Below the pieces are notes generated by a model. The model did not search any database. It was not told the origin of the DNA and was given only the letters and a program-made list of their open reading frames with translations. A program made the position numbers and the translations under genes. Positions 636 to 59,745 of a stretch of DNA of 64,000 nt are shown one piece after another. The stretch comes from a virus. Position 1 is the first letter of the stretch. Each line of letters starts with the position of its first letter. Location of the stretch: positions 64,001 through 128,000 of IMG/VR virus record IMGVR_UViG_3300045988_160113, one strand, 5' to 3'.

Positions 636-3002
636 TTATAATGAGAAAATTGAAGTTGCTTTTTCTTTTGCTTTTAGTTTCAAAGCCTTTACACCCAAGC
701 TCCCCTTTGACGTCAAAGCTACTTCGCGCGTAGAAAATCTAATCGCCGCAGAACCAGTAGTTGTTACTACATCCATTACATCATTTGCTGGTAAAAAACC
801 AACAAGTTTTTCTCCGTCAGTAACTTTATGGAGTTTGGTTCCTTTTACATTACGATTAGTCTTGGGAAGTTCATCCAATGAAGTTCTACTAATCATGCCA
901 TCTGAAGTCAGTGATACGATTTCGTGCGCAGAACTATCAATAACCTGAGCGTCAATAACTTCATCACCATCATTGAGTTTTGCTCCTTGTACACCCATAG
1001 CAATTTTACCAACAGGGGTAATATCAGATGTACTAAATCGCATAAACTGACCACGCGTAGTAAGAAGTCCAATATCTTCATCATTTAGGAAAAGAATTTT
1101 ACAAAGATTATCACCCTCGCGCAGTTTGATAGCAGAAGAGCCACGGCCTGTTTTGGTTTTATATTCAGTAATTGCTGTCTTTTTTACAAGTCCATTCTTT
1201 GTAATGAAAACAATAAATTTACTTGCACTGGCTTTATCAAAGGAAGTGATATTTGTGATATACTCACCATCTGCTAACTTCAAAATTTCGCTCACATTGA
1301 TAAAAGCATTCAAAGGAAGGTCAGATAGAGGATAAGAATAACTCTTACCAAGATTAGAAAAAGCCATGAGAGTTCCAAGATTAGTATCTGCGACACTTTC
1401 AATGACACATTCACCATTTTGAAGTTTTATTTTACTTCCAGTTCCACCACGGCGCTGAGTAATTAGAGTGGACTGTTCGTTAGTATAAATGTTGCCATAA
1501 TTAGTCAGATTTACAATAAGAGACTTTTGTTCAATAACTTCACCCTCTTCATTAGACTGTAAATCCATAATTTGTGTTCTGCGCGCGTCTCCAAATTTGG
1601 TTACGACTTCACGAAGTCCATTTTCAATTTCTTTTTTGAGAAGAGTTTCATCATTTAGAATAGACTCAATGTGCGTGGCCTCTTTTTCAAGGTCGGCTTT
1701 TTCATTTTCAAGTTTGTTGATTTCAAGACGAGCAAGACGCGATAGCTTGATATCAAGAATTGCCTTGGCTTGTGCTTCATCAATAGAGAGTAAAGATTGA
1801 AGAGCCACATTCGCTGCGCGCGTATCAAAAGATTGTTTGATAGTGCGGACAACTTCATCAATCATATTGATTGCCTTGAGTAGACCATCAATAATATGAA
1901 GCCGCGCGCGAATTTTATTGAGATCAAATTCAAAACCACGGATATATACTGCGCGCTCATGGTCAAGATGAGATTGAAGAAGTTCCTTCCATGTAAAAAC
2001 TTTTGGATAGCGACCATTTTCAAGCATGGTCATATTGATAGTATAATGACTCTGTAGAGAAGTATTCTTATATAAATACTTCAATACTTTTTCTGGTGTT
2101 GCATGTTTAGTAAGATAAATTTTCAAATTACTTCTATAACCACTATTACCAGTCAAATCATTGAAACGCTCAATACCTGGATTTTCTTCACTCTCCAGAA
2201 TTTTTTCAAGTTGTTCACAAATTGTATTTGTATATACTCCAAAAGGAACTTCACTAACAATAAAACAACGCTCTTTTTGATTATATTCAAGAAGACTGCG
2301 AAGTTTACAAGCGAATCCTCTTCCATTGAGAAGTGATTCTTTTGTCTCTTTTGGATTGAGAATAATTGCTCCGGTAGCAAAATCAGGAAGAATAACAATA
2401 TCTTCTGCTGGAGTATCTGGTTCCCAAAGCAACTTGATAAGAACTTCATTGAGTTCTCTAATATTGAATTGAGGAACAGAACTTGCCATACCAACAGCAA
2501 TACCGCTACTACCATTTACAAGATTATAAAAACCCTTACTTGGTAAGACAGACGGATATTGAAGATTATCAGCGTAATTATCATGCCATTCCTCAATGGT
2601 ATTTTTCTGAATATCGGCAAATAAATAATTACAAGTTTCTGCTAATCTTGTAGATGTATAACGCTCTGCCGACCAACTACCAGAACTCATAAGTGTGCCT
2701 GAATTACCTTTTACTTCAGTAATAGGATATCTCATACTAAAGTTTTGTGCTGCGCGCATCATAATACCGACGCAAGAACTATCACCATGAATATAAAAAT
2801 CTTTCATAGCATCCCCCATAGGGGCATTAGTTTTTTCATAAGGTTTTTCATGGACATATTTATTACGCCACATGGAATAAAAGATTTGTCTAGCAGATGG
2901 TTTCAATAAATCACGAGAATCTACAAGTGCGCGAGACTGAAGAACTGCTCCACTATATTGAATAAAAGAATCTTTGATAATAGGAGTAAGATTTACTTCC
3001 AA
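636..3002 (-). CDS. type IIA DNA topoisomerase subunit A (GyrA/ParC-like)
   Basis: 788 aa; catalytic-Tyr motif AERYTSTRL; N-terminal LKPSARQIFYSM segment; repeated C-terminal beta-pinwheel-like segments. Confidence 0.9.
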   Translation of the reverse strand: MEVNLTPIIKDSFIQYSGAVLQSRALVDSRDLLKPSARQIFYSMWRNKYVHEKPYEKTNAPMGDAMKDFYIHGDSSCVGIMMRAAQNFSMRYPITEVKGNSGTLMSSGSWSAERYTSTRLAETCNYLFADIQKNTIEEWHDNYADNLQYPSVLPSKGFYNLVNGSSGIAVGMASSVPQFNIRELNEVLIKLLWEPDTPAEDIVILPDFATGAIILNPKETKESLLNGRGFACKLRSLLEYNQKERCFIVSEVPFGVYTNTICEQLEKILESEENPGIERFNDLTGNSGYRSNLKIYLTKHATPEKVLKYLYKNTSLQSHYTINMTMLENGRYPKVFTWKELLQSHLDHERAVYIRGFEFDLNKIRARLHIIDGLLKAINMIDEVVRTIKQSFDTRAANVALQSLLSIDEAQAKAILDIKLSRLARLEINKLENEKADLEKEATHIESILNDETLLKKEIENGLREVVTKFGDARRTQIMDLQSNEEGEVIEQKSLIVNLTNYGNIYTNEQSTLITQRRGGTGSKIKLQNGECVIESVADTNLGTLMAFSNLGKSYSYPLSDLPLNAFINVSEILKLADGEYITNITSFDKASASKFIVFITKNGLVKKTAITEYKTKTGRGSSAIKLREGDNLCKILFLNDEDIGLLTTRGQFMRFSTSDITPVGKIAMGVQGAKLNDGDEVIDAQVIDSSAHEIVSLTSDGMISRTSLDELPKTNRNVKGTKLHKVTDGEKLVGFLPANDVMDVVTTTGSAAIRFSTREVALTSKGSLGVKALKLKAKEKATSIFSL

Positions 3003-3033
3003 AGAAATTCCTCCTTTTACATTTTATATAATT

Positions 3034-3062
3034 ATTATAACAAAAATAGAGAGGAAAGTCAA
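3034..3062 (-). promoter_or_regulatory. promoter cassette upstream of the topoisomerase A gene
   Basis: reverse strand: TTGACT (3057-3062), 17 bp, TATAAT (3034-3039). Confidence 0.6.
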
Positions 3063-3078
3063 ATTTCCTCTCTACTCT

Positions 3079-3465
3079 TTATTCTCTAATTAGTGAGAAA
3101 TCAACATTTTTGAAAATAAAATCTGTTCGAGGTTCAACATCTTTGCCCATAAGACTATAAAGCAAATCAAAACTAAGCTGGTCTGGTTTGAACACATCAA
3201 GTCTTTGATATTCTGGAGTGAACATGGATTCATGGGCCTCTATTGCTTCGAGTGAACCAAGTCCCTTCGCGCGATGAACTTCACCTTTGATTTTACCCTG
3301 CTTACGCGCAGCATCAAATTCTTCATCATTGAAATAATAAGAACGATTTTTACCTTGCTCGACAATAAAAAGTGGAGAACGAAGCCAACAAAGGCGACCT
3401 TCCTCGATAAACTGAGGGGCAAGTTTTAGTAAACAAGCCATAACAAGAAGCCCGATATGATAACC
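3079..3465 (-). CDS. type IIA topoisomerase subunit B, exon 2 (C-terminal part of Toprim and tail)
   Basis: Begins GYHIGLLVMACLL, continuing the Toprim motif TDADSD|G from exon 1 (compare GyrB [20 protein letters not shown]); the ORF track start at 3477 is a TTG inside the intron. Confidence 0.8.
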   Translation of the reverse strand, partial: GYHIGLLVMACLLKLAPQFIEEGRLCWLRSPLFIVEQGKNRSYYFNDEEFDAARKQGKIKGEVHRAKGLGSLEAIEAHESMFTPEYQRLDVFKPDQLSFDLLYSLMGKDVEPRTDFIFKNVDFSLIRE

Positions 3466-4507
3466 CACTTTACCCAATATTTCTATTGGAGTAGACTATA
3501 TGTTACTCATTATAAAATGAGGATGCTCTTTCCCACCTACGTATCAATAGTAGGGGTACTCCCCTTCCGGGGGATAGTCGTTACAGGCTTCATTTACTAA
3601 CCCAAGCCTTTTGTTTTTTGCTATATACTGGAAGGTTTTTATAGGTGCGACCCCACAGTATTTGTTGTATTGTATTATAATTACATCTATCTTTATAATC
3701 ATTATAAATACTTTTCGCATCTTCTGAGACGTATCTTTGACGCATTTCTAGAACTTCTTTATCAGTAAATTTAGCATTGGTAGATTTTTCACCATCTGTG
3801 GCATGATATTTATAAAAGTTTTTATTTTCTTCTGTATAAACTTCCATTTTTATATCTTGCCAAGTGGAGCCATCCCAAATACTAGCAAATCCATCAAAGC
3901 TAATTTTATCTTTGAATAATTCATAAACTTCTCGTCTACGAAAATGCTCATCATAACAATTTCTTATATAAGCGACGTCTTCATTTGAAAGTTTTGTTCT
4001 GCCATTATTTTCACCACGGCCATTTTTCCCTCCGGGATGACAGTTGTAGCCAAAACCTTTATATGTGTCATAATAAGCAATCCAATAAATTTCTCTTTCA
4101 TCTAGATTTTCAAGAGAACACTCTTCGATTATTTCAAAATCGAAAGATTCAATTCCATATTTATGAATTGCTATATCTATCGCTAAATCTGTTTTTGTTT
4201 TATGTTCAGAAAATCTTCTATCTATATTATTTGATTGCCCAATATAAGATTTTCCATTTTGTTTCTTTGTAATTTTATATATGCCTATCATTGCGGCACC
4301 TCCCACAATTTTAGGCTTTGGGTTAGCAAATGATTCCCACGGGATCTGCGTGTCCTTTTTGAAAAAAGGATTTAGCTTCTCTTACCACCATAACCTTACG
4401 GTTTAGTTGCCCGTTAGCCTCTATTTATAAGTAGAATATGTAAACCCTAATTATAAAAATTTGAGACCCGATTGATAATCGAAAAGCATCTACAGACAGT
4501 TTTACTT
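3466..4507 (-). mobile_element. group I intron (about 1042 nt) with internal GIY-YIG homing endonuclease ORF
   Basis: Interrupts the Toprim motif between ...ICTDADSD and GYHIG...; the 5' exon ends in U (GAU) and the intron ends in G (..AAAGUG). Structured flanks include the GNRA hairpin CCCC-GGAA-GGGG and several other stems. Confidence 0.75.
3590..4291 (-). CDS. GIY-YIG homing endonuclease (intron-encoded)
   Basis: MIGIYKITKKQNGKSYIGQSNNIDRRFSEHK ... EIYWIAYYDTYKGFGYN; ATG at 4291 has a GGGAGG RBS (the track start at 4306 is GTG). Confidence 0.85.
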   Translation of the reverse strand: MIGIYKITKKQNGKSYIGQSNNIDRRFSEHKTKTDLAIDIAIHKYGIESFDFEIIEECSLENLDEREIYWIAYYDTYKGFGYNCHPGGKNGRGENNGRTKLSNEDVAYIRNCYDEHFRRREVYELFKDKISFDGFASIWDGSTWQDIKMEVYTEENKNFYKYHATDGEKSTNAKFTDKEVLEMRQRYVSEDAKSIYNDYKDRCNYNTIQQILWGRTYKNLPVYSKKQKAWVSK

Positions 4508-5980
4508 ATCTGAATCCGCATCTGTACAAATTCCAAGACGTCCATATCTAAGTTTCTTACTGTCGTATTTTCCAGGAACAATATTCATCGCGCTGAGAAG
4601 AAGTTTGATTTCTTCATTCTGAAAAATCTTTTCATCATCATTAGAAAGGCAGTTGATAATTTTACCTTTGACACACATTAGACCAGTTTTATCGGTATTA
4701 CGCGCCTGTGCCATACCATTGAGTGCACTGTCTCCCTCACAGACAAGAAGAATAGCATCTTGTCCAAGGAATTCTGCATCCTTGAGTTTATCTGATGCGA
4801 ATACTTTACGCTTCTGATTTTTTTCAATATCTTTCTGCGCATTCAAGACCTGAACTCGCGCGCGTTCTGCGGCGGCTTCTGCTTTAGCAATTTTAGTGAG
4901 AATTTCAATAACTTTATCAAAATCCCCTCTGCGGCGCGCGTAAAAATCTTTTAGGCAACTTGAAATCGCAGTAGCAGTTGCTGTTCCTGCTTCTTTATTA
5001 GCCAAAGCAGTTTTTGCTTGGTTAGAAAATTGGCCAACATGGACTTTGACGGAAACAAAACCCTCAAGACAATCTCGGATTTGTTCTCCAATGAATTTTG
5101 TTTTTGCGAGATTATTGAAAGTTCTTGTTAGAGAGGTTTTGAAAGAACTAATAAAAGCTCCACCATCAGGCATATAAAGACCATTTGCATAACCCTTGAT
5201 ACTACCTTTTTTAGTTACCCATTGTAGAGCAAGTTCTACTTTGCAATCTTCATCTTCATAAAAATAACTAAAAGGTTTGCCGATAGCATTTTCACTTTTT
5301 AGACCATCAATAAGTCCATTTTCAGAGAAGAAAATTTGTTCTTTTCCATCAATAATAAGAATAATTTTTAGCCCTTTAGTAAAATAAGACATTTCACGAA
5401 GCATATTTTTTAGAGATTCTTCATCAATAAAAATATCTCCGTAAACGGCTTCATCTGGAACATAAGTAATAATAGTTCCAGTTTTAGAATCCTTTGCTTT
5501 TGAAATTTTTACATCTGAAGTTGGAGTGGCACCTTCTTCATTGCTTTCAAATCGTTGAAAATAAATATTTCCATCTCTATGGACTTCTACTTCAAGCCAC
5601 TTTGCTGTATGACAAACTACTTTATTACCCTCACCATTGATACCAACCGAACTAACATAAGACCCTTCCTTATGTTTTGCTCCTGAGTGCGGAAGTAGAA
5701 AAGCTGCGGTAAGAGAGTTCACTCCATCATTACGAACCGCGCAAGGAATTCCACGCATATTATCAGATACACGAATTTTTCGTTCTTTTGTAAAAAGTTC
5801 AATTTTTAGAAAAGGATTTTCTGGTTTATATACTTCAAATTCATCCTGAACATTGACAATAAGTTCACGCAAACCAAGATTGATTGCTTCTTGACGGTCT
5901 GCGCTAAGATACATTCCAATTTTTTCTCTAAATGCTCGACCTGGAGATAAAGTTGTCAAGTCATTAGCGCCGTATGTCAT
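4508..5980 (-). CDS. type IIA topoisomerase subunit B, exon 1 (ATPase, transducer, N-terminal Toprim)
   Basis: GHKL-like N-terminus (GLRELIVNVQDE, GINGEGNK); Toprim LLVCEGDSA and ICTDADSD; the in-frame stop at 4502-4504 lies in intron sequence. Confidence 0.85.
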
Positions 5981-36279: not shown

Positions 36280-36356
36280 GGCACTGTAACCCAATTGGCA
36301 GAGGTAAATCACTCAAAATGATTGAAGTATGAATTCGAATTTCATCAGTGCCACCA
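36280..36356 (+). tRNA. tRNA with anticodon CAA (Leu by code) but short variable arm
   Basis: GGCACTG/CAGTGCC acceptor, A73, encoded CCA; AATCA-CTCAAAA-TGATT anticodon arm; ATGAA-TTCGAAT-TTCAT T arm; 3-bp D stem with 11-nt loop; 5-nt variable region. Confidence 0.65.
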
Positions 36357-36452
36357 TAAAGAATTTGGGATAGAGCAGAAAAGCGCACCTGCTTGATAAG
36401 AGTAACTCCCTCTTCCCTTATTCTTATCTTATGGAGTTAGTAAGGAGTAAAA

Positions 36453-37154
36453 ATGGAAGAATATGGCATATTTCAAATTCTTGAAAAGTTAGATGAAAGA
36501 GATAAATATCATCATCAATTATGTCGTATTAGATGCAAATATTGTGGAAGAGAATTTATTCGAGCATATAGTCAAGTAAAAGCTCCGTCTTCTTACACAA
36601 CGGTTTGTAACCATAAAAGGAAAAATGGTGAAGATGTTCAGTATGGGATACACTGGAAAAATTCTCGTATAAGAAGTATTTATGCTGGAATTATATCTCG
36701 TTGTTTCAATGAGGAGGATAGAGATTATCGTTTTTATGGAGCAAAAGGGGTTTCTATTTGTAAAGATTGGCAAGAGAATCCTTTACATTTTGAAGATTGG
36801 GCTTTAGCTAATGGTTATAAAGATAATCTAACTATTGATAGAGAAGATGAGACTAAAGATTATTCACCTGATAATTGTCGATGGATAACAGGAGAAGAAA
36901 ATGCTCGTTGGAAATCAACAACAAATCGAATTGATGTTGATGGAGAAATAAAAACTGGACAGCAATGGGCTAAATATTTGGGTTTTGGTCCAAATCTTAT
37001 AAATAGTTATATTAGAAAATATGGATGGGATAATACTGTAGAATTTATTCGTCGTTATAAAGCACATCCATATCAAGGATTGCTACCTCATAAAACAAGT
37101 TATTATTCTATGTATATGTCTGATAATTATAAAAAGGAGAACAATAATGAATAA
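36453..37154 (+). CDS. HNH-family homing-endonuclease-like protein
   Basis: YGAKGVSICKDW...LTIDREDETKDYSPDNCRWITGEENARWK; N-terminal CRIRCKYCG zinc-ribbon. Confidence 0.5.
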   Translation: MEEYGIFQILEKLDERDKYHHQLCRIRCKYCGREFIRAYSQVKAPSSYTTVCNHKRKNGEDVQYGIHWKNSRIRSIYAGIISRCFNEEDRDYRFYGAKGVSICKDWQENPLHFEDWALANGYKDNLTIDREDETKDYSPDNCRWITGEENARWKSTTNRIDVDGEIKTGQQWAKYLGFGPNLINSYIRKYGWDNTVEFIRRYKAHPYQGLLPHKTSYYSMYMSDNYKKENNNE

Positions 37155-37362
37155 TTATTCCTACTTTATTGGCGATCGTGTTTTTGTAAAGGATTATGGT
37201 GTTGGAACTATCACCAAGATTGACGAGAAGTCGCGTGACTTCACCTATTTCGTCCGTTTCAAGGGACACGCAAGAGGCTGGTTCCCTGAGTATCGTCTGA
37301 GCGAGTATGTGGAACCAGTTGTGAAGGTAGAATCTTCTGATGAGGAAGTATCTACCCTGTAA
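37147..37362 (+). CDS. hypothetical protein
   Basis: 71 aa, ATGA-type overlap. Confidence 0.5.
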   Translation: MNNYSYFIGDRVFVKDYGVGTITKIDEKSRDFTYFVRFKGHARGWFPEYRLSEYVEPVVKVESSDEEVSTL

Positions 37363-37382
37363 ATCCATTATCGACTAACTTT

Positions 37383-37448
37383 TCGCGGCCTTGTGTAAAT
37401 TGCTTCATTTATAGATAGATTTTTTGGTAAATTTATACAAGGCCGCGA
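37383..37448 (+). repeat. long inverted repeat / stem-loop
   Basis: TCGCGGCCTTGT...ACAAGGCCGCGA (12 bp, extendable) around a loop of about 40 nt. Confidence 0.6.
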
Positions 37449-37490
37449 TAAGAGTTTGCTCTGCGCGCAGAATGTGAGAAAGGAGTAATT

Positions 37491-37697
37491 ATGACTTGCC
37501 TTGAACATTTGATTGAGAACACTCTTGATAGTTTCAGTAAACGAAAACCCGTCCAAGAAATCTGTGATAGAATTAGAGAAGATGTAAATTTATCTGGCTC
37601 TGGTCTTACTGTTGAGCAGTGTTATGAAATTTGTCAGTTCATTTTTTACGATGTTCTTCCCTATTCTAATTATTATTTAGAAGATAACAGATACTAA
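37491..37697 (+). CDS. hypothetical protein
   Basis: 68 aa, AAGGAG RBS. Confidence 0.55.
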   Translation: MTCLEHLIENTLDSFSKRKPVQEICDRIREDVNLSGSGLTVEQCYEICQFIFYDVLPYSNYYLEDNRY

Positions 37698-37700
37698 AAT

Positions 37701-37729
37701 TTGATTTTTCTCAAAATTTCTGCTATAAT
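37701..37729 (+). promoter_or_regulatory. promoter cassette
   Basis: TTGATT, 17 bp, TGCTATAAT. Confidence 0.65.
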
Positions 37730-37760
37730 ATTTATAGAAAGTTGAGAGGAGATACATAAA

Positions 37761-37979
37761 ATGAATACCTTGAATTTTGGTGAATTTTACAATGAACTCG
37801 ATGAGAGTGGTAATTCCACTGGTCGTGTCTATAAATGCATTGGTATCGCCGCAGATTATTACCAGACTGGTGAGGAAGTAGTTCTTATGGCTCGTATTGG
37901 TGATGGTGGCTATTCTAATGGTTTGCTTTATATTCCTGTTGGAGATTTCATGGTAGATTTCGAGGAGATTCGAAAATGA
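37761..37979 (+). CDS. hypothetical protein
   Basis: 72 aa behind a cassette. Confidence 0.55.
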   Translation: MNTLNFGEFYNELDESGNSTGRVYKCIGIAADYYQTGEEVVLMARIGDGGYSNGLLYIPVGDFMVDFEEIRK

Positions 37980-38176
37980 ATGAAGATTATGTAAAGGGAG
38001 AAATGTTAGAAAATTTCTCCAATTCTAACAAAAATCCAGACTATCCTATTATTTGGAGCGATACTGTATGGGAAGATATGAATGTTCCTATGTCTTGTCG
38101 AATGTGCAGTAATCATCCTATCAATGGTGGAAGTGGAATTTGCTGGTGCGTTCTCGGAGTTCCAGAAATTAGGTAA
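37976..38176 (+). CDS. hypothetical Cys-rich small protein
   Basis: 66 aa; CRMCSNHP...CWC. Confidence 0.5.
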   Translation: MNEDYVKGEMLENFSNSNKNPDYPIIWSDTVWEDMNVPMSCRMCSNHPINGGSGICWCVLGVPEIR

Positions 38177-38182
38177 ATAAAT

Positions 38183-38257
38183 ATGGGCGTGGTGTAATTG
38201 GTAGCATAATAGTCTCCAAAACTATTGGTTTTCGTTCAAGTCGAAACGCTCATGCCA
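38183..38257 (+). tRNA. trnW: tRNA-Trp (CCA)
   Basis: ATGGGCG/CGCTCAT acceptor; ATAGT-CTCCAAA-ACTAT; TTTCG-TTCAAGT-CGAAA; encoded CCA. Confidence 0.8.
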
Positions 38258-38263
38258 TGCCAC

Positions 38264-38294
38264 GGCGTCGTAGTGTAATTGGCAACACGGTGCG
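38264..38294 (+). pseudogene. tRNA 5' half only (acceptor strand, D arm, 5' anticodon-stem strand)
   Basis: GGCGTCG-TA-GTGT-AATTGGCA-ACAC-G-GTGCG, then AT-rich sequence leading into the GIY-YIG ORF; no matching 3' half (CGCAC...CGACGCC) seen downstream. Confidence 0.4.
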
Positions 38295-38357
38295 TAATAA
38301 ATAAAAGGAAAGGGTAATAAAAGGAAGAGAGGTATTTTATTTTATGGAGTGGTAGTA

Positions 38358-39137
38358 ATGAAAAAGATTGGTATTTATAAAATTATAAATACGGTGAATG
38401 GGAAAATTTATGTTGGTCAGTCTATAAATATTTATGACAGATGGACACAGCATAAGTATAAAAGTATCTATTCTGAAGAATTGGGGTATAACTCCGCAAT
38501 TCATGCTGCAATGAGGAAATATGGTTTTGAAAATTTTGTATTTGAAATTATTGAAGAATGTGAACCGGAATTATTAGACGAAAGAGAAAGATATTGGATT
38601 GAAAAATTGAATTCTTTGACTCCAAATGGTTACAATATCATGCCTGGAGGACAGAAAAATAAAAGAATAATTCATAGATGCTGTGATTGTGGAGCGATAA
38701 TTAGCAAAGGTGCGAAAAGATGTGAAAAATGTGCTCATAAAAATCAAGAAAGAGCAAAAAATCCTTTTGAACCTTTGGAATTAGCAGAAGAAATTAAAGA
38801 AAAGGGCTTTGAAGCTTTGGGCAAAGAGTATGGGTATACAAATGGGCGCCCTATAAAAAAATGGTGTAAGCAACTTGGTTTACCAGTGTATAAAGAAGAA
38901 ATTATTAAATGGTATGATGAACAAATGGGGATAAAACCTCCTGAAAAAGTTCAAAAAAAGAATAAGGAAAGGCCAGTTTATAAAATAGATTTACAAACAG
39001 GAGAGATTTTAGAAGTTTTTTCAAGCATAGCAGAAGCAGCAAGAAGCATTGGAAAAAAGAAAGGTAACCATATTACAGAGGTTTGTAAAGGAAAATTTCT
39101 TTCTGCTTATGGCTATGGGTGGAAATATGTAGAATAA
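38358..39137 (+). CDS. GIY-YIG homing endonuclease
   Basis: IGIYKIINTVNGKIYVGQSINIYDRWTQHK...RYWIEKLNSLTPNGYN; zinc-ribbon CCDCG...CEKC; the stop abuts tRNA-Gly. Confidence 0.85.
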   Translation: MKKIGIYKIINTVNGKIYVGQSINIYDRWTQHKYKSIYSEELGYNSAIHAAMRKYGFENFVFEIIEECEPELLDERERYWIEKLNSLTPNGYNIMPGGQKNKRIIHRCCDCGAIISKGAKRCEKCAHKNQERAKNPFEPLELAEEIKEKGFEALGKEYGYTNGRPIKKWCKQLGLPVYKEEIIKWYDEQMGIKPPEKVQKKNKERPVYKIDLQTGEILEVFSSIAEAARSIGKKKGNHITEVCKGKFLSAYGYGWKYVE

Positions 39138-39139
39138 AT

Positions 39140-39213
39140 GTCGTATTGGTGTAATGCTAGCATAAGACACTTCCAATGTCTTGGTGGCAGTTGGAATCTG
39201 CTATACGACCCCA
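39140..39213 (+). tRNA. trnG: tRNA-Gly (UCC)
   Basis: GTCGTAT/ATACGAC; AGACA-CTTCCAA-TGTCT; encoded CCA; T-loop TTGGAAT. Confidence 0.75.
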
Positions 39214-39315
39214 TCGTCACACACTCCGTGACGAAAATTCTCTTTCCCCCCTTTCCTTTGCCCTGGCAGGCGGCATTATAGTCTGCTTTCCCCCTCAATA
39301 GTAATATATATATAT

Positions 39316-39392
39316 GGAGCAGTAACTCAGTTTGGTAGAGTAGCGGTCTTTTAAGCCGTCTGTCGGGTGTTCGAATCACCTCTGCTTCACCA
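39316..39392 (+). tRNA. trnK: tRNA-Lys (UUU)
   Basis: GGAGCAG/CTGCTTC; GCGGT-CTTTTAA-GCCGT; GGGTG-TTCGAAT-CACCT; CCA. Confidence 0.8.
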
Positions 39393-39395
39393 TAC

Positions 39396-39471
39396 GGGAG
39401 ATTAGCTCAGTTGGTAGAGCGCGTGACTGTTAATCACGATGGCGTAAGTTCGAACCTTACATTTCCCGCCA
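39396..39471 (+). tRNA. trnN: tRNA-Asn (GUU)
   Basis: GGGAGAT/ATTTCCC; CGTGA-CTGTTAA-TCACG; GTAAG-TTCGAAC-CTTAC; CCA. Confidence 0.85.
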
Positions 39472-39618
39472 AGGTTACCACTGAGCCGTAAAGTGGCGGG
39501 TGAAATTCTCGATAGCTGGGGTCTGAGTTTTACGCTATCTCTTTTGACATGGGGTTAAAGCGGTTAATCAGAATTAAATGAGGAAACAGTGTCATTAATC
39601 TCTACCAGCAAATTTTAT

Positions 39619-39695
39619 GGGACAATAGCTTATGAGGTCTGAGCACTGGTCTGAAAAACCAGAGGGTGATGGATCGTTACCATCTTGTCCCACCA
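39619..39695 (+). tRNA. trnF: tRNA-Phe (GAA)
   Basis: GGGACAA/TTGTCCC; CTGGT-CTGAAAA-ACCAG; GATGG-ATCGTTA-CCATC; CCA. Confidence 0.75.
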
Positions 39696-39724
39696 TTTGA
39701 AATTCATTATAAAGATGACGCTAT

Positions 39725-39799
39725 GGTGCGGTAGTTTAGTTGGTAAAACGGAGGACTTATAATCCTTTGTCTCTTGTTCAAACCAAGGGCGCACCACCA
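39725..39799 (+). tRNA. trnI: tRNA-Ile (UAU, AUA-reading)
   Basis: GGTGCGG/GCGCACC (one mismatch); GAGGA-CTTATAA-TCCTT; TCTTG-TTCAAAC-CAAGG; CCA. Confidence 0.75.
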
Positions 39800-39808
39800 C
39801 TTCAAAAT

Positions 39809-42748: not shown

Positions 42749-43027
42749 ATGTTTATTCCTGCTAATCCATCTGTTTTTCCTTGTGAAAATTGTACACATC
42801 GTGGTATTTGTAAATATGAAGATGATGTAATGAGTTTTGTTCGCTGTGCTAAATTGCCTGAACAAGAATGCTTGTCTATCAAGTATGAATGTAAGTATAA
42901 GACTTATACAAATTTGTTTGGTGGATATAGGGATTTTGAAGTGACTAAGATTAGTAATACTAATGGTTGTACTACTTCTCGTCCTTATACTATTGATACA
43001 TCTTCAGAATGTATTGATAAAATTTGA
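42749..43027 (+). CDS. hypothetical Cys-rich protein
   Basis: ATG 42749 after GGAGG. Confidence 0.5.
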   Translation: MFIPANPSVFPCENCTHRGICKYEDDVMSFVRCAKLPEQECLSIKYECKYKTYTNLFGGYRDFEVTKISNTNGCTTSRPYTIDTSSECIDKI

Positions 43028-43052
43028 CAAAATCTAAAATTTCTGATATAAT
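43024..43052 (+). promoter_or_regulatory. promoter cassette driving a noncoding transcript
   Basis: TTGACA, 17 bp, TGATATAAT; leader ATATTCAGAAAGTGAGAGGAG; no credible ORF follows. Confidence 0.65.
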
Positions 43053-43092
43053 ATATTCAGAAAGTGAGAGGAGAACTAAATCTCCTCAATAT

Positions 43093-43168
43093 AGCAGTAG
43101 GGAGAAACGGTTTCCTCGCTTGGCTCATAACCAAGAGACATCTGGGTCAGCACCAGTTACCGCAACCA
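43093..43168 (+). ncRNA. tRNA-like module (anticodon-like CAU) with non-canonical T-loop
   Basis: 76-nt cloverleaf: CTTGG-CTCATAA-CCAAG arm, T-arm TCTGG-GTCAGCA-CCAGT, 3' TACCGCA-A-CCA; 5/7 acceptor pairs. Confidence 0.45.
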
Positions 43169-44361
43169 CAATTAAAAACAATGAGGCTAACGGCAGTTGC
43201 ATCAACGAAAGTTGATTAGACGGGTCGGGGTTAGCAAAGAAAGGTTAACAGGTAGTGCAGCGGTAGGTAACAAATCCGTAAGTCGAAATGAGTTGGGAAA
43301 ACCAAATGATACGGCTTAGTCCTTCGTAAGAAGTTGAAGAGAGATTTTAGGTAAAAGGTAACAACTTTTAACTGCTCTTCGTAATTGACCATGAAACAGG
43401 GTCATAGCTACCACTCATTGTTTTTAGATGTTTTATCAAAGAAGACGAATGGTTGGTGAGTCTCAAAACAACCCAACTACCACATTACTAATCATCGCTA
43501 CTCGTGGTTAGTAAGTTGTTTTAGAAGTAGCAAACCTACGAGTATGGTAGGCGGCGCGGTAATAGTCGTAAAGGGTGAGGTAAAGCTGAATTATCATTTG
43601 AGGTAGTTTCTTTCTCCTAGCCAAAAACAGAAACCGGTGCGCAGTCGTGAAATGCGGGAATGGTAGATAAGCCTTAGTGTACTACTCATACGGTTGTGAG
43701 TTCTCCTATGTATCTTGAGAACTCTCGGCGGCGAATGCCTAAATCTCCCCGCCCGCGCGGTTATAGCGGCGTTTACCAAACTGTTATTCGATAAAATGGT
43801 TTGGAAGTGCGAGTAGTAACTTGGAATTACTCCCGAAAGCAACGGTTAGATTGCTCAACTTGCTAGACTCAAGTTGACAAATGGGAGGTGGCCCCTCCTA
43901 TGTCTCCCACGCAACACTAAGCGCGGGCGTATATGGGAAATAGTCAACCATATACTTATTGGGTTGAGAGTGTAATATTATACATAAAATCCCTCTGCGC
44001 GCAGAGTAAATCTGCGGTATCGTAGTAAAAACTCTACAAAAAAACTATATCAAAGGGACGACTCTAAACGAGGTAAGGGAAACAAAGTAAAGAGTACATT
44101 CTCTTAGGCTACTTTGGTATTATATGTGGTGTGGTTGAGGAGTATGGGCGACGATACACCGGAATGCGGAGTTAGCGACATACTGTGTAGATGGCGAGTC
44201 AACAGAGCGATATAGTTTATTTTGGCTTCCTTTCCGCTCTTGCGGGATGACTCTAGGATAGCGATACTACAAAGTAAAGGAGGACTGTGATTTATTCATA
44301 GCCCTCTTTTGCTTTACCAAAATTGTGTATTTTTAGGTAGAAAATTTTACTTAGTAATAAG

Positions 44362-44386
44362 AGGTTATAAAATTATAACCTTTTAT
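44362..44386 (+). terminator. intrinsic terminator closing the noncoding unit
   Basis: AGGTTATAA-TTATAACCT palindrome followed by TTTTAT. Confidence 0.55.
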
Positions 44387-44417
44387 AATATATTTTATAA
44401 AACAAGGAGGGAATAAT

Positions 44418-45029
44418 ATGGATAATATAGTTGTTTCCATTCCCGAACGTGCGAACACAACCATCCCTGACCCAAGTCTATTATGGTATTATGAAGACTT
44501 AGAAGATAGAGTTTATCAATTGGTTGGAGAGGTTGATGAAGGTTTGCTAGATTTCTCACGCCACGTTATTAGATGGAATAGAGAAGATAAAGGAAAACCA
44601 GTTGAAGAGCGTAAGCCTATAAAATTATTTTTCTTTAGTCCTGGTGGAAGTCTTGATATAAATTATTCTGTCATTGATATTATTCGCTTGAGCAAAACTC
44701 CTATTATTGGCATCAATATGGGTGTTTGTTGTTCTGCGGCGGCGTATATTTATCTTGCTTGCCATAAGCGTTATATGCTCCCTCATTCTTATTTTGTATT
44801 TCATCAAGGCAGTTCTCAAATGTCAGGAACTTATGGTGAAGTTGTTGCTATTATGACTGATTATCAGAATCAAGTTGCTGAATTAAGTTCCTTTATGGAA
44901 GAGAGAACTACTTATACTAGTGAGGAAATTACTGACAATATCGTTACTGAATGGTATGTAAGGGAAGAGGAAGCTCTTGAAAAGGGAGTATGCCACGAAG
45001 TAATAGAAGATATAGAGGTGCTATTATAA
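44418..45029 (+). CDS. ClpP-family serine protease
   Basis: FFFSPGGSLD...GINMGVCCSAAAYIYLACHKRYMLPHSYFVFHQ matches the ClpP S14 pattern (xSPGGxV, GxAAS, R..lp....iHQ). Confidence 0.8.
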   Translation: MDNIVVSIPERANTTIPDPSLLWYYEDLEDRVYQLVGEVDEGLLDFSRHVIRWNREDKGKPVEERKPIKLFFFSPGGSLDINYSVIDIIRLSKTPIIGINMGVCCSAAAYIYLACHKRYMLPHSYFVFHQGSSQMSGTYGEVVAIMTDYQNQVAELSSFMEERTTYTSEEITDNIVTEWYVREEEALEKGVCHEVIEDIEVLL

Positions 45030-48639: not shown

Positions 48640-48668
48640 TTGAAAATTTTAGAAATATATGATATAAT
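48640..48668 (+). promoter_or_regulatory. promoter cassette
   Basis: TTGAAA, 17 bp, TGATATAAT; leader ATATATAGAAAGTGGAAAGAG. Confidence 0.65.
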
Positions 48669-49231: not shown

Positions 49232-50425
49232 ATGACTGTTCATGATACTTATGATAATCTAATGGAAGTCCAAAAGTTTATTCTTGACCACGAAAATTGG
49301 AAAGAACTCTTGGAAAATCCTCCTTACTGCCTGAAGATTACCGTAGAGGGTACTCTTATTATGTTCAATTATAGTCAGTTGGATTCTGATTTCTATAATC
49401 CTATCGTCAAGGAATGCCGTGGTTTGATTCTTGATAAAAATACTTACCGAGTTGTGTGTCGCGCGATGGATAAGTTTATGAATGCTGAGGAAGGTGCAAG
49501 TGACCTCAATAAAATCAACTGGTTTGATTTTCAGATTCAGACTAAAATTGATGGGTCTTTGATTCGTCTTTATCATTATAACGGCGAATGGCACGTGTCC
49601 ACCAGTGGTACGATTGATGCCTTCAATGCACCTCTCAATGTTGGCGGTTACAAGACTTTCGGTGATTTATTTGCGGCAGCACTATGGAAGTATATCAATC
49701 CTGAGTGTTTTTATGGAATGCTTGACCCTACTCATACTTATTGGTTTGAGTTGACTTCTCCGTATAACCGCGTTGTTATTCCTTATGATGAAATTGAATT
49801 GACTTTTCTTGGTTGGCGCGCAAATTATGCTCCCTATAAGGAAAAGTGGCCCTCTCAGTCAGTTGTCGCAGAGTATATTCCTATTGCTAGTAGGCTTCCT
49901 CGTCAATCTTATCAGTCTCTCCGCGCGCTGGCTGATTCATTGCCTTGGAATGAAGAGGGCTTTGTAATTTGTGATAATAATTTCCATCGTGTCAAGGTGA
50001 AGTCTCCTGCTTGGATTTCTGCGCACTATCTGCGGAATAATGGCATTCAGCCTGACCGTAGACTTATTGATGTTATCCTACATGGTGAGCAGGAAGAATT
50101 GCTTACTTATGCTCCTGAATATACCGACCGTCTACACGAACTTCAAGCAATGATGGAAGAGTATCACCTGCGCGCTGATGAACTTTTTAGTGTTTATTTG
50201 GAAATGTATATTGGTTTGGATTGTCCTGGCCGCGCATGGTTCGCAAAAACTGTAAAGAAGAATAAAGAAGATTGTGAACCGTATTTGTTTTGGGCTTTCA
50301 GTAAGATTTATGGCACTCCGCGCGGTGAAATGGATGATAATAAAGATTATTCTTTCAAGAGATATGAGAAGGAAAATCTTGATGCGCGCAAGTGGGTAAG
50401 ATTGTTGAAGTTGAAGGAGGAATAA
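49232..50425 (+). CDS. ATP-dependent RNA ligase (Rnl1-like)
   Basis: Motif I QTKIDGSLI (KxDGS); ECRGLILD upstream; EEGFVICD (motif IV-like); VKVKSP (motif V-like). Confidence 0.6.
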   Translation: MTVHDTYDNLMEVQKFILDHENWKELLENPPYCLKITVEGTLIMFNYSQLDSDFYNPIVKECRGLILDKNTYRVVCRAMDKFMNAEEGASDLNKINWFDFQIQTKIDGSLIRLYHYNGEWHVSTSGTIDAFNAPLNVGGYKTFGDLFAAALWKYINPECFYGMLDPTHTYWFELTSPYNRVVIPYDEIELTFLGWRANYAPYKEKWPSQSVVAEYIPIASRLPRQSYQSLRALADSLPWNEEGFVICDNNFHRVKVKSPAWISAHYLRNNGIQPDRRLIDVILHGEQEELLTYAPEYTDRLHELQAMMEEYHLRADELFSVYLEMYIGLDCPGRAWFAKTVKKNKEDCEPYLFWAFSKIYGTPRGEMDDNKDYSFKRYEKENLDARKWVRLLKLKEE

Positions 50426-55550: not shown

Positions 55551-56112
55551 ATGGCAATCTGGATTACTTCAGATTGGCATTAGGCATTTTTGCCATGATA
55601 GAGAATTTCTTTATAAGCCACGCGGTTTTGATAATATTCAAGATATGAATCGTGCAATTATTCAGAGGCATAATAAACTGGTAAACTGGGATGATGATGT
55701 CTATACTCTTGGTGATTGTATGCTCAATAATAACGATGAGGGAAGAAGTTGCATTGCTCAGTTGAATGGACAAATTCATATTATTAGAGGAAACCACGAC
55801 AGTAATGGCCGTATGGAAATCTATCGTGGCCTTCATAATGTAGTTGAAGTGTGCGAAGGTAAATTCCTGCGCAATGGAAAATACCATTTCTATCTTTCTC
55901 ATTATCCTTGTCTTACGAGTAATTGGGATGAAGATAAACCTCTCAAGGCGCGCATGACGAATTTGTGTGGTCATAGTCATACTAAAGACCATTTTGCAGA
56001 CTGGGGCAAAGGTCTAATTTTTCATTGTGAAATGGATACAAATAATTGTGAACCCATTCTTCTTGATGATATTATCAAGAAAATTGAAATCAAGTTAGGA
56101 GAAAATAAATGA
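55551..56112 (+). pseudogene. calcineurin-like metallophosphoesterase with an internal frame change
   Basis: MAIWITSDWH (motif I, frame of 55551) hits TAG at 55581. The remainder, RHFCHDREFLYKPRGF...GDCM...RGNHDSN...CGHSH, continues in the +1 frame (track ORF 55645-56112). Confidence 0.6.
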
Positions 56113-56478: not shown

Positions 56479-56982
56479 ATGCTTGTTGTTCTTGTTGGCC
56501 CTTCGTATAGTGGTAAGTCAACTGTATGTGAATTTTTCAAGAGATATTATAAGATGCAGGAACTTCCTATGTATGTTGTTTGTCCTGATGATATTCGTGA
56601 AGAACTTCTTGGTGATGCTAGCGACCAGTCAAATGGCAAGATGATTTTTGAGACTGCTTATGAAAGAGTAGACAAGGCACTAAATTCTTCTTTGAATACT
56701 GTTTTCTTTGATGCTACTTCGCTTACTCCTGCGCGCAGAAAGCCTCTTATTGAAATTGCGAAGAAACATAAAACGTGTTGCTTTGCCGTGGTTATGCCTA
56801 ACTTTACTGAAGAAGAACTCACTGCGCGCGCAGCAACTCGTGAACGTAAGGTTCCTTTAGATGTGGTCTACGCGCAGAAACAGAGAATGATTTATCCTAA
56901 TGTTGAAGAAGGCTTTGATTATACTATGGAGATTCCGAAGTCTTCATTGGATATTATGAAGGAGCGACTAAATGATTGTTAG
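56479..56982 (+). CDS. P-loop kinase (polynucleotide-kinase-like)
   Basis: MLVVLVGPSYSGKST Walker A at the N-terminus; about 167 aa. Confidence 0.55.
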   Translation: MLVVLVGPSYSGKSTVCEFFKRYYKMQELPMYVVCPDDIREELLGDASDQSNGKMIFETAYERVDKALNSSLNTVFFDATSLTPARRKPLIEIAKKHKTCCFAVVMPNFTEEELTARAATRERKVPLDVVYAQKQRMIYPNVEEGFDYTMEIPKSSLDIMKERLNDC

Positions 56983-58272: not shown

Positions 58273-59419
58273 TAAATCCTTTCAATACTCGAATGGTCGG
58301 TGAGAGTATAAATAACCTGACTACCATGGTGAAACGGTAGTAGCCAACCAGTATAGAGGAGTTCGATTCTCTGAACCGCGGCGTTCGACTCGTCCGGTGC
58401 GAGGGCAAAACTGGTATAGCGCGAAGAAATTGGAGAGCCAGATGACGCGCTACTCTCTGATGCTGGTCAGTCTCACGTCTTGCAGAAAGCATCTAAAACA
58501 CGGGGTACGCTGAGCATTAGTCGATGCGGCGGCTTCCTAGGAGAGTTCTAACCTAGGCCAAGGTTTATGAACACCGCAAGTAAGGTTCTTCTTTTCGAGG
58601 GTGATGTATTGTGAGGAAGGGCTGAAAGACTTAGATGGGAAGTAATGATGATTACTCGATCTAAGTGTGTAGAAAATTAGAATCGAAGACCTCGTAGCGG
58701 CCGTAGCGAGGCTACCGTGTGGACGGTAATCGTGTCCTCCAAAGTGCTAGGCAAAGCGGGCATACAGAGTGGTGATTGAACAGTTATTGGCTAGTCCACT
58801 CATTGAAGCTACTAATCCTGACGTCGGAGGTAGTAGTTGACGGCAATCAAAAAGATTGTAAGTCCATGGAACTAATGCGCTGTGCTCATTGTCTATGGCA
58901 TGACTGTGAAGACTCAATAGGATGTCTTCCAAAACGATGTGAGAAGTCGTGCAGAGTGGTGATAACACTAGCCCACTCAATAAATCCAGATGATACTGGT
59001 TGAGTTGTGTGTAAGGAAGAGGTAAGGTTGGTGTGCGGTATATAAAGAAGGCCGTGATTAGCATACAACAAAAAATACAGACGAGGGGTTAGGTAATGTG
59101 ATGGATTCGGCGGGTGAAAGTCCCGTGGAGGTAGTCTGTATTCTAATTCTAATTCTAAAAACCTACATAGAAGTAATTCCACCTTGAGAAGGGTCGTCAT
59201 TCGACGAAGTATAAGTTGAGTACTACTTATACTAATAAAACAGACTGGTGGTTGAGTAGGTCATCTGGATTCTTCTAATAGGTAGCAGTCACCTACGTCA
59301 AGCGGGCCTTGTATCACGGTTTCCCGCGGAAGGCTGTAGACTGTGAGAGTGTGATAGTAAATGGGAACAGGGGAGGCCCTCAAGCACACGGGCGAGCGCA
59401 CGCCTTTCTCCCTATATAT

Positions 59420-59488
59420 GCTTAGTTGGTGTAAGGGGTAGCATAAGCCGCGGAAGCGGAGACTCTGGTTCGAACCCAGAACTAAGCA
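59420..59488 (+). ncRNA. tRNA-like module with anticodon arm replaced by a GNRA-capped hairpin
   Basis: GCTTAGT/ACTAAGC acceptor; GTGT-AAGGGGTA-GCAT D arm; CCGC-GGAA-GCGG; TCTGG-TTCGAAC-CCAGA T arm; no CCA. Confidence 0.45.
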
Positions 59489-59567
59489 CAGTAATGTGGT
59501 AACTACCATGCTCAACGCGCGAGAGTACCCGGAAGGTAGTTGACAGCCAGGAAAGACTGGCAGGCCT

Positions 59568-59636
59568 GGTCGATTAGTGTAACGGTAGCACGCCATCCTT
59601 TTATGGAGGAAGAGAGGTTCGACTCCTATGCGATCT
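59568..59636 (+). ncRNA. degenerate tRNA-like module (UUU-type loop)
   Basis: GTGT-AACGGTA-GCAC D arm; CCATC-CTTTTAT-GGAGG (one mismatch); AGAGG-TTCGACT-CCTAT; poor acceptor pairing; no CCA. Confidence 0.35.
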
Positions 59637-59745
59637 CAATTATTTATTAGGTAGTCATTACTCCATCGCGAGGAGCCTAAACAAGAGTAAAAGAATGACT
59701 GGCACTCTGGAAAGACGGAGAGACGTCTATAAAGAGGTAGTTGAT

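Follow-up and report, generated by a model that had tools for sequence, protein, structure and literature searches.

A probable modular noncoding operon with a large structured RNA ahead of a ClpP-like gene in a human-gut phage

Overview of the locus

The window analysed here is a stretch of 64,000 nucleotides (nt) of phage DNA, positions 64,001 to 128,000 of the IMG/VR record IMGVR_UViG_3300045988_160113, and our subject is a noncoding locus of about 1.3 kb within it (43053-44386; features are on the plus strand unless noted). A promoter leads into a degenerate tRNA-Met(CAU)-like element (43094-43168), a RAGATH-33 RNA domain (43174-43425), a short hairpin followed by ACCA that we call the minihelix (43449-43482), a 5' module designated W (43483-43597) and the core of a large RNA (43598-44315), after which comes the gene for a ClpP-like protease. 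The initial annotation of the window had taken all of this as one giant structured RNA. We favour, with a probability of roughly 0.7, a modular noncoding operon of a human-gut phage, of the kind seen in phage tRNA islands, in which the core is very probably a genuine new structured RNA. This reading draws on the modularity of the locus, its structure and covariation, its lack of coding, the lack of an Rfam match for the core, and synteny with a slot that ROOL RNA fills in related phages. Related phage contigs are referred to below by L numbers.

Promoter, leader and absence of coding

The locus is headed by a sigma-70-type promoter with an extended -10 element at 43024-43052 (TTGACA-17-TGaTATAAT, 12 of 12 consensus matches), which overlaps the stop codon of an upstream open reading frame (ORF) of 97 amino acids and is conserved in the sister phage L022. 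Extended -10 promoters are found 21 times in the window, against 1.4 expected by chance. This single promoter heads the whole stretch, which has no strong internal promoter. The initial annotation had described a canonical promoter-leader cassette with no gene behind it, and we agree: the promoter is perfect, eight copies of the cassette align, including the copy at 43024 (at least seven others share the downstream leader), and only the 43024 copy lacks an ATG. The other copies carry a Shine-Dalgarno-like GAGAGRAGA and then, 5-10 nt on, an ATG. At 43068-43087 the leader of the 43024 copy forms a hairpin, GAGGAGA/UCUCCUC (minimum free energy, MFE, -11.1 kcal/mol, z -3.66), that sequesters the Shine-Dalgarno-like sequence. 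As a pattern, the cassette (TTGAMW-N14-TGnTATAATATATATAGAAAGTGAGAG) occurs at 21 sites of the window, for example at 48640, 51279, 57584, 58002 and 63491, and its repetition identifies a class of promoters, specific to the phage, in which the initially transcribed sequence is conserved.

No protein-coding gene, standard or recoded, was found behind this promoter. The longest ORF in 43053-44417 has 83 codons, and reassignment of any single stop codon (TGA, TAG or TAA) yields at most 120 codons and opens no frame, so that the idea of an alternative genetic code was rejected. Most of 15 homologues have stops or frameshifts within the antisense ORF at 43594-43842, and the indels among homologues of the core are not multiples of three (their lengths include 1, 2, 11 and 14 nt). 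The G+C content is 0.40-0.48 inside the stretch and 0.32-0.35 in its flanks. The MFE of 43426-44390 is -296 kcal/mol on the plus strand (z -6.2) and -258 kcal/mol on the minus strand (z -4.8). The hairpins picked out in the initial annotation (those capped by GNRA loops, GGAGG...CCTCC and GTATATGG...CCATATAC) all lie where they had been placed; the last two are helices of the consensus structure, and GTATATGG...CCATATAC covaries. Because the tests of promoter and leader, coding, G+C content and folding agree, the observation of a noncoding, structured, comparatively G+C-rich stretch was correct.

Rfam release 15 was scanned with cmscan over 42900-44500, with relaxed filters and a listing to E<=10. 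No match at E<=10 was obtained in this interval to GOLLD, ROOL, HEARO, OLE, raiA, intron or tRNA models, nor to any known ribozyme or riboswitch; group I and group II introns were equally absent. Apart from tRNAs, the only match above a gathering score is RAGATH-33 (RF03102), at 129.9 bits; whatever else reaches E<=10 is noise. The scan by covariance models that had been proposed for this stretch therefore returns one small known family and leaves the large RNA unmatched.

The core of the large RNA and its terminators

Homologues of the core were located by synteny and by scans with invariant 17- to 22-mers. More than 20 independent assemblies contain one, with the region complete. The alignment (A1) comprises 16 distinct sequences, which have 79-89% identity to the window over the core. 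From this alignment RNAalifold predicts 190 pairs in 28 helices, with 98.9% of cells paired. Covariation across related phages, which the initial annotation had put forward as a check, is evident: the core has 24 compensatory pairs, against 10.7±1.8 in shuffled alignments (0 of 500 reach 24) and 2-5 in slid controls.

The core, of about 715 nt, consists of local hairpins in its 5' part and a multi-helix domain in its 3' part. The helix 43606-43613/43626-43634 is the clearest case of covariation, with four sequence versions, and the helices 43693-43707/43716-43729, 43782-43785/43795-43798 and 43929-43935/43949-43955 have good support as well. Between homologues, indels add or remove hairpin tips. 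The 3' domain has two long-range helices, 43803-43808/44225-44230 and one of 15 bp at 44037-44051/44209-44224, each with one compensatory change, and these enclose an almost invariant block at 44131-44215. A further helix from RNAalifold, 43598-43602/44350-44354, spans the terminator and never varies, and we distrust it.

An intrinsic terminator, T1, lies at 44271-44315 and is made up of an A-tract, a G+C-rich stem and UUUUGCUUU (-24 kcal/mol, z -6.73). It is conserved, has one compensatory pair (helix 27; U-A to C-G in 6 sequences) and is the probable 3' end of the large RNA. Further on, at 44357-44386, is an A+U-rich 13-bp hairpin with a U-rich run (-12.8 kcal/mol, z -4.3; one compensatory pair, helix 28), which could either serve as an additional, weaker terminator or belong to the upstream region of the ClpP-like gene. 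The initial annotation had ended the transcript at this palindromic hairpin, which is real, and had overlooked the far stronger T1.

These data bear on the possibility that the stretch is the remnant of a decayed protein gene, an intron or a mobile element, with no RNA function. In favour of such an origin, the locus is mosaic through recombination and has many homing endonuclease genes in its vicinity. Set against this are the compensatory changes that hold 98.9% of cells paired, the lack of any conserved ORF, and the integrity of the region in more than 20 assemblies; moreover, the only match to an intron family at E<=10 is negligible and lies outside the stretch, at 59108-59129. We consider a remnant most improbable.

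A complete RAGATH-33 domain

The RF03102 match spans 43186-43313 on the plus strand and model positions 1-113 of 113, and its score of 129.9 bits exceeds the gathering score of 120.4, so that the window copy is a full-length member of RAGATH-33. About 130 nt of the supposed giant RNA are thus a catalogued Rfam family. Homology of the window to 18 viral contigs extends over approximately 43168-43440, more than twice the length of the Rfam model. A degenerate pattern of its core retrieved 19 true RAGATH-33 loci in IMG/VR phage contigs of 67-219 kb, all within tRNA arrays; a twentieth pattern match, L018, was a chance match within other sequence and was discarded. In about 10 of the loci a same-strand tRNA ends approximately 10 nt before RAGATH-33, and in 7 of those the next tRNA begins approximately 17 nt after it.

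An alignment of 19 distinct copies (A2) gives a consensus of 49 pairs, with 98.4% of cells paired. Of these pairs 24 are compensatory, whereas shuffled alignments give 15.8±1.8 (24 is reached in none of 500) and slid controls 3-8. The domain, of 252 nt (43174-43425), is closed by its own terminal helix of 10 bp (43176-43185/43414-43423), in which 9 of the 10 pairs covary. A long-range helix, GGUAGU/GCUACC (43251-43256/43407-43412), covaries in L002, L006 and L014. The hairpins of the Rfam model are kept: the first is never broken, and the second and the 3' hairpin covary, as do several further helices. The model, with 113 positions, covers only the 5' half of a conserved unit of about 252 nt, and the AGGUAGU that it marks as unpaired is here partly paired with the 3' GCUACC.

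An alternative fold, in which RAGATH-33 would be a tmRNA-like or tRNA-like RNA with a GGCUA/UAGCU-ACCA acceptor end, was rejected because L002 and L006 have changes in the 3' strand that nothing in GCUAA compensates. Instead of joining such an acceptor pairing, CUACC pairs with GGUAG, and GGUAG/CUACC covaries. A candidate tag frame is not conserved between sub-groups, and ARAGORN finds no tmRNA. RAGATH-33 itself is already known, and its true extent and structure are new here; no paper on it was found in the literature searched. The catalogue entry can be corrected accordingly: the motif accounts for only the 5' half of a closed domain, about 250 nt long, found within phage tRNA arrays.

tRNA-like elements and exchangeable modules

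The first element behind the leader had been described as a tRNA-like cloverleaf with a CAU loop and the odd T-loop GTCAGCA, and the MFE fold of 43094-43168 is indeed a cloverleaf of this description. The anticodon loop is a CUCAUAA of 7 nt. Its oddities are the T-loop, which reads GUCAGCA, an acceptor stem interrupted by an A-C mismatch, and the tail AACCA, in which two nucleotides precede CCA. The element thus departs from the canonical T-loop (UUCRANY) and from a fully paired acceptor stem. ARAGORN makes no call on it down to 70% of its threshold, and the Rfam tRNA model (RF00005) gives no match at E<=10. ARAGORN calls sister versions tRNA-Met(CAT) once its threshold is lowered (to 90% for L022 and to 80% for the L027 copy), and window positions 43019-43168, promoter and element together, align with a promoter and a genuine tRNA-Met(CAU) (63.9 bits on the Rfam tRNA model) that precede ROOL in L002. 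The operon has retained, at its head, a tRNA-Met gene in a decayed state.

The minihelix is a hairpin of 6-7 bp within about 35 nt (43449-43482), of the form AUGG-YY-GG...CC-RR-CU followed by ACCA, and its stem covaries. Across loci the stem appears as UU/AA, CC/GG, CU/AG and UC/GA, and with G-U wobble as UC/GG and UU/AG; from these six variants it follows that pairing is kept. In L024, L025, L041 and L043 a genuine tRNA-Cys(GCA) with an encoded CCA takes its place and abuts CAUUACUAAUC, the base after 43482 in the window, so that the large RNA starts at the very next base after the minihelix and after tRNA-Cys alike. A repeated hairpin of about 34 nt (ATAGTCT...AGACTAT with an A/U-rich tail), seen at module or tRNA ends at L036:3187-3220, L048:3047-3080 and L008:2078-2110, may be another punctuation or terminator element.

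Module W (43483-43597, alignment A1) is specific to the clade and contains the hairpins UUACUAAUC/GGUUAGUAA and CCUAC/GUAGG; it shows too little variation for a covariation test. In farther relatives (L036, L040, L044 and L047, and L037, L045 and L046) it is replaced by the unrelated modules X and Y, and the conserved core must therefore start at 43598. Modules X and Y also follow the minihelix in L001, L003 and L011, where the core is lacking. Counted with the 115-nt module, the new RNA has about 830 nt.

Sister phages from gut metagenomes were found by look-up of the exact ClpP-like protein, and they differ from the window by whole modules. In L022 (ClpP DNA 99.8% identical) 43096-43445 is replaced by 133 nt that hold a different tRNA-Met-like element, so that both the RAGATH-33 domain and the window's own tRNA-like element are missing. 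L027 (also 99.8%) keeps the tRNA-like element of the window and lacks RAGATH-33, and the four phages with tRNA-Cys(GCA)-CCA directly before the large RNA include one, L024, with ClpP DNA identical to that of the window (100%). Several metagenome contigs break at or near module junctions. The cores of L022, L024 and L027 are only 86-87% identical to that of the window, far below their ClpP identity of 99.8-100%, and for this reason we describe the RNA locus as a recombination mosaic (43600-43930 against sister loci). In the more distant L036 and L037 core identity is 80-82%, slightly above that at ClpP third codon positions (76%).

This independent gain and loss of modules among near-identical phages is a difficulty for the single RNA of about 1.3 kb, running from promoter to terminator with the tRNA-like part as its 5' domain, that the initial annotation had proposed. 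There is one promoter and no strong internal one, and GOLLD is known to carry tRNAs inside it (PMC12286853; phiCbK in our control), both of which would suit such an RNA. However, RAGATH-33 is closed on itself and occurs alone in 19 other phage contigs, in four loci a real tRNA stands between the large RNA and the modules upstream of it, and none of the predicted helices connects those modules with the core. A single giant RNA is, in our judgement, very unlikely, and we continue with the modular operon.

Comparison with ROOL and GOLLD

To our knowledge, very few large and intricately folded RNAs are known from bacteria and phages, namely OLE, GOLLD, ROOL, HEARO and raiA. ROOL and GOLLD form cages by cryo-electron microscopy (cryo-EM), and their function is still open. 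Both are phage RNAs found beside tRNA islands and associated with tRNA-Met, and GOLLD combines a variable 5' part with a conserved 3' part (PMC12286853). The phage structured RNAs listed by Fremin et al. (2023) are only 29-151 nt long.

ROOL (RF03087) and GOLLD (RF02032) gave no match at E<=1 in the homologous loci L022, L036, L037, L043 and L045. The same cmscan pipeline scores ROOL at 302 bits in L002 and 326 bits in L031 and GOLLD at 165 bits in phiCbK, so that on the only sequence-and-structure membership test available for ROOL and GOLLD the core falls outside both families. An nhmmer search with the core profile found nothing in the ROOL loci, and none of the conserved sequence blocks of ROOL is visible in the core.

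Phages with a 68%-identical ClpP (L031-L035) lack the new RNA, and this absence led to the finding of ROOL. In L031 (ROOL at 1361-1997, plus strand) the order is tRNAs, ROOL, three genes, ClpP (68% identity) and PhoH. In L002 (ROOL at 4468-5062, minus strand) it is RAGATH-33, tRNAs, tRNA-Met(CAU), ROOL, ClpP (47% identity), PhoH and a homologue of a 549-amino-acid protein. The window has the tRNA-Met relic, RAGATH-33, the minihelix, the new RNA, ClpP, a GIY-YIG gene, PhoH and the 549-amino-acid protein. In both relatives ROOL lies upstream of a ClpP-PhoH block homologous to that of the window. Position is the strongest tie between the new RNA and ROOL, and from it we conclude that the new RNA occupies the ROOL slot.

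The new RNA resembles ROOL as a large multi-helix phage RNA next to tRNAs, in the same slot in L002, and it shares the phage tRNA-island location of ROOL, with the island at 36280-39800 and tRNA-like elements directly upstream. It differs in size (about 580 nt for ROOL, about 715 nt for the core) and in having neither a covariance-model match nor common sequence blocks; ROOL is known to form homo-oligomeric nanocages by cryo-EM (PMC12286853), a property that the new RNA may share. GOLLD, likewise a phage RNA, measures about 800 nt, lies near tRNA islands and is linked to tRNA-Met (PMC12286853), and its variable 5' and conserved 3' parts recall, as a resemblance only, the three unrelated modules W, X and Y before one core. 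It differs in that its model does not match and in that no tRNA is embedded inside the core.

It could be argued that the large RNA is merely a highly diverged ROOL or GOLLD. Their common niche (in two relatives ROOL precedes the same ClpP-PhoH block, in one of them in identical order), the GOLLD-like layout (PMC12286853) and the similar size all speak for this view. The blank searches speak against it: with relaxed filters the window had no match at E<=10 and five homologous loci had none at E<=1, in a pipeline that gives hundreds of bits to true ROOL and 165 bits to GOLLD, and neither ROOL blocks in the core nor the core profile in ROOL loci could be detected. Divergence from either family seems improbable to us, and we take the core for a new class of an established kind, the large phage RNAs associated with tRNA islands. 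The suggestion of a GOLLD- or ROOL-type family was therefore right as to the kind of RNA, which is large and structured; the RNA is a member of neither class and is not larger than GOLLD.

In neither Rfam 15 nor the literature searched did we find the RNA of 715-830 nt, and blastn of 43000-44420 against 50,697 phage records gave no match. In IMG/VR, patterns of the ClpP-like peptide retrieved nothing, nor did an exact 23-mer of the invariant block, in which L040, the sole IMG/VR member, has a 1-nt deletion. No copy was found in 185,579 species-representative genomes, and no prophage host was found; two 20-mer matches, in metagenome-assembled genomes of Gracilimonas and Ottowia, are due to chance, as nhmmer shows no homology. 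The distribution of the new RNA is thus one human-gut phage clade and one IMG/VR contig.

Proposed maturation and points against it

Transcript ends, processing and function of the noncoding operon are matters that we infer. The strong, early-type promoter at 43024-43052 would give rise to a single precursor of about 1.25 kb, probably ending at 44271-44315, with the decayed tRNA-Met(CAU), the 252-nt RAGATH-33 domain, the ACCA hairpin and the large RNA (115-nt 5' module and core of about 715 nt) as its modules. The tRNA-like elements could serve as punctuation at which host enzymes would cut, RNase P at their 5' sides and 3'-end maturation after CCA, and cutting would release the RAGATH-33 RNA and the large RNA separately. 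The large RNA may then act as a free-standing structural RNA, a non-homologous counterpart of ROOL and GOLLD and not a leader of ClpP. Our best guess is that it would be abundant, possibly self-assembling, and on the tRNA or translation side of infection; we attach low confidence to any specific function.

Punctuation by tRNAs is known from mitochondrial tRNA punctuation, from the mascRNA of MALAT1 and from tRNA-flanked RNAs in bacterial and phage tRNA arrays. The present locus is similar in that tRNAs, or elements derived from them, with a terminal CCA stand between its RNA units, and in that one and the same junction can hold either a real tRNA or the minihelix. At module boundaries tRNA, pseudo-tRNA and minihelix can replace one another, and the module that follows begins directly after CCA. 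The locus differs in that the minihelix is much smaller than a tRNA, in that the pseudo-tRNA lacks the T-loop consensus and in that cleavage is only proposed here. The pseudo-tRNA and the minihelix are ordinary in kind, and their interest lies in their use as punctuation.

A rather different role would be that of a long, structured 5' leader regulating the operon of the ClpP-like protein and PhoH in cis, with two regulated attenuators, T1 and T2. In all homologous loci the ClpP-like gene (44418-45029; Pfam CLP_protease, 3.4e-20) comes immediately after the RNA, with no more than weak promoter-like sites in between, and two terminator-like hairpins stand in tandem; since ClpP always follows and no good promoter intervenes, a role in cis through terminator read-through is possible. 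Yet with 715-830 nt and about 27 helices the RNA is far beyond known leaders, three genes stand between ROOL and ClpP in L031, T1 has the strength of a constitutive terminator (-24 kcal/mol), and no alternative antiterminator pairing was seen. On balance we give a leader function little credence and keep to the free-standing RNA of a modular operon.

The constant position of ClpP is one of several points that weigh against our reading. The transcribed strand, the ends and the processing sites are predicted from the promoter and terminators, from G-U pairs and from an MFE asymmetry of 38 kcal/mol. The global fold of the core is tentative, because each long-range helix has only one compensatory change. 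Several compensatory changes were inherited in recombined blocks, which leaves fewer independent events than the cell counts suggest. The family is narrow, being confined to one human-gut-phage clade with at least 79% identity. The minihelix stem of 6-7 bp is shorter than those of classic RNase P minihelix substrates, and module W may be a separate small RNA and not a 5' domain, because X and Y occur without the core.

Neighbouring genes and other noncoding loci

Upstream of the locus, the tRNA island at 36280-39800 holds seven tRNAs, including Ile(UAU), Leu(CAA) and Trp(CCA), with an interleaved GIY-YIG/NUMOD1 homing-endonuclease gene (38349-39137). Downstream, the window encodes a T4 Rnl1-type RNA ligase (49232-50425, PF09511), a product whose relatives match Metallophos_2 (55645-56112) and an AAA_33/KTI12-like kinase (56479-56982). 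Judged by their domains, the ligase, kinase-like and phosphoesterase-like genes look like a tRNA-repair gene set flanking the noncoding loci. A neighbourhood of tRNAs and RNA repair would fit a role of the large RNA on the tRNA or translation side, and proves nothing.

A second ORF-free stretch lies at 58273-59745 on the plus strand, after a gene of 70 amino acids; it has about 1.45 kb and 47% G+C. A second copy of the minihelix (58288-58326) opens it, and it ends near a weak tRNA-Lys (59567-59637), with an uncalled tRNA-like stretch at approximately 59420-59490. No convincing Rfam family match was found in it at E<=5 beyond a sub-threshold tRNA match. Its MFE has a z score of -2.85, and nine sister contigs are 84-95% conserved, with module-sized indels right after the minihelix. 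There are 5 compensatory pairs against 0-3 in slid controls, a count limited by sequences that are too similar, and the stretch is a candidate for a second large RNA.

Small noncoding modules are common to many phages in mosaic fashion, at 73-95% identity. In IMG/VR phages of 165-216 kb, L001 (approximately 1750-4660, minus strand) and L003 (7400-9900) contain noncoding arrays of about 3 kb in the order RAGATH-33, minihelix, module X, odd tRNA, minihelix, module Y with sequence of no known kind, and tRNA-Leu. Rfam tRNA matches that span 120-142 nt (L031:1131-1272, L022:1467-1591 and L001:5793-5912) suggest that some phage tRNA genes contain insertions of 50-70 nt, which may be introns. In L024 and L025 (2443-4425) PhoH is split into 111 and 173 amino acids by an ORF of 271 amino acids with a faint LAGLIDADG match, which suggests an intron or a homing-endonuclease insertion.

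Implications

It is possible, though we hold it to be rather doubtful, that the core is a giant phage RNA of a third class, evolved independently, with the same job as ROOL and GOLLD, for example as a self-assembling RNA-only particle, and that the ACCA minihelix is a general tRNA-mimicking processing signal. If so, the minihelix would cut large noncoding RNAs out of polycistronic precursors, as might also happen at the second copy, which precedes the ORF-free region of about 1.45 kb. A non-homologous replacement at one genomic slot would then offer a comparative handle on the purpose of ROOL-type RNAs, since an RNA unrelated in sequence and of similar size at the ROOL position would mean that the need of this slot can be met by two or three different folds. 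Maturation of such RNAs could be accounted for by the punctuation system of pseudo-tRNA and ACCA minihelix, and the new RNA is a well-defined target for cryo-EM or oligomerisation work.

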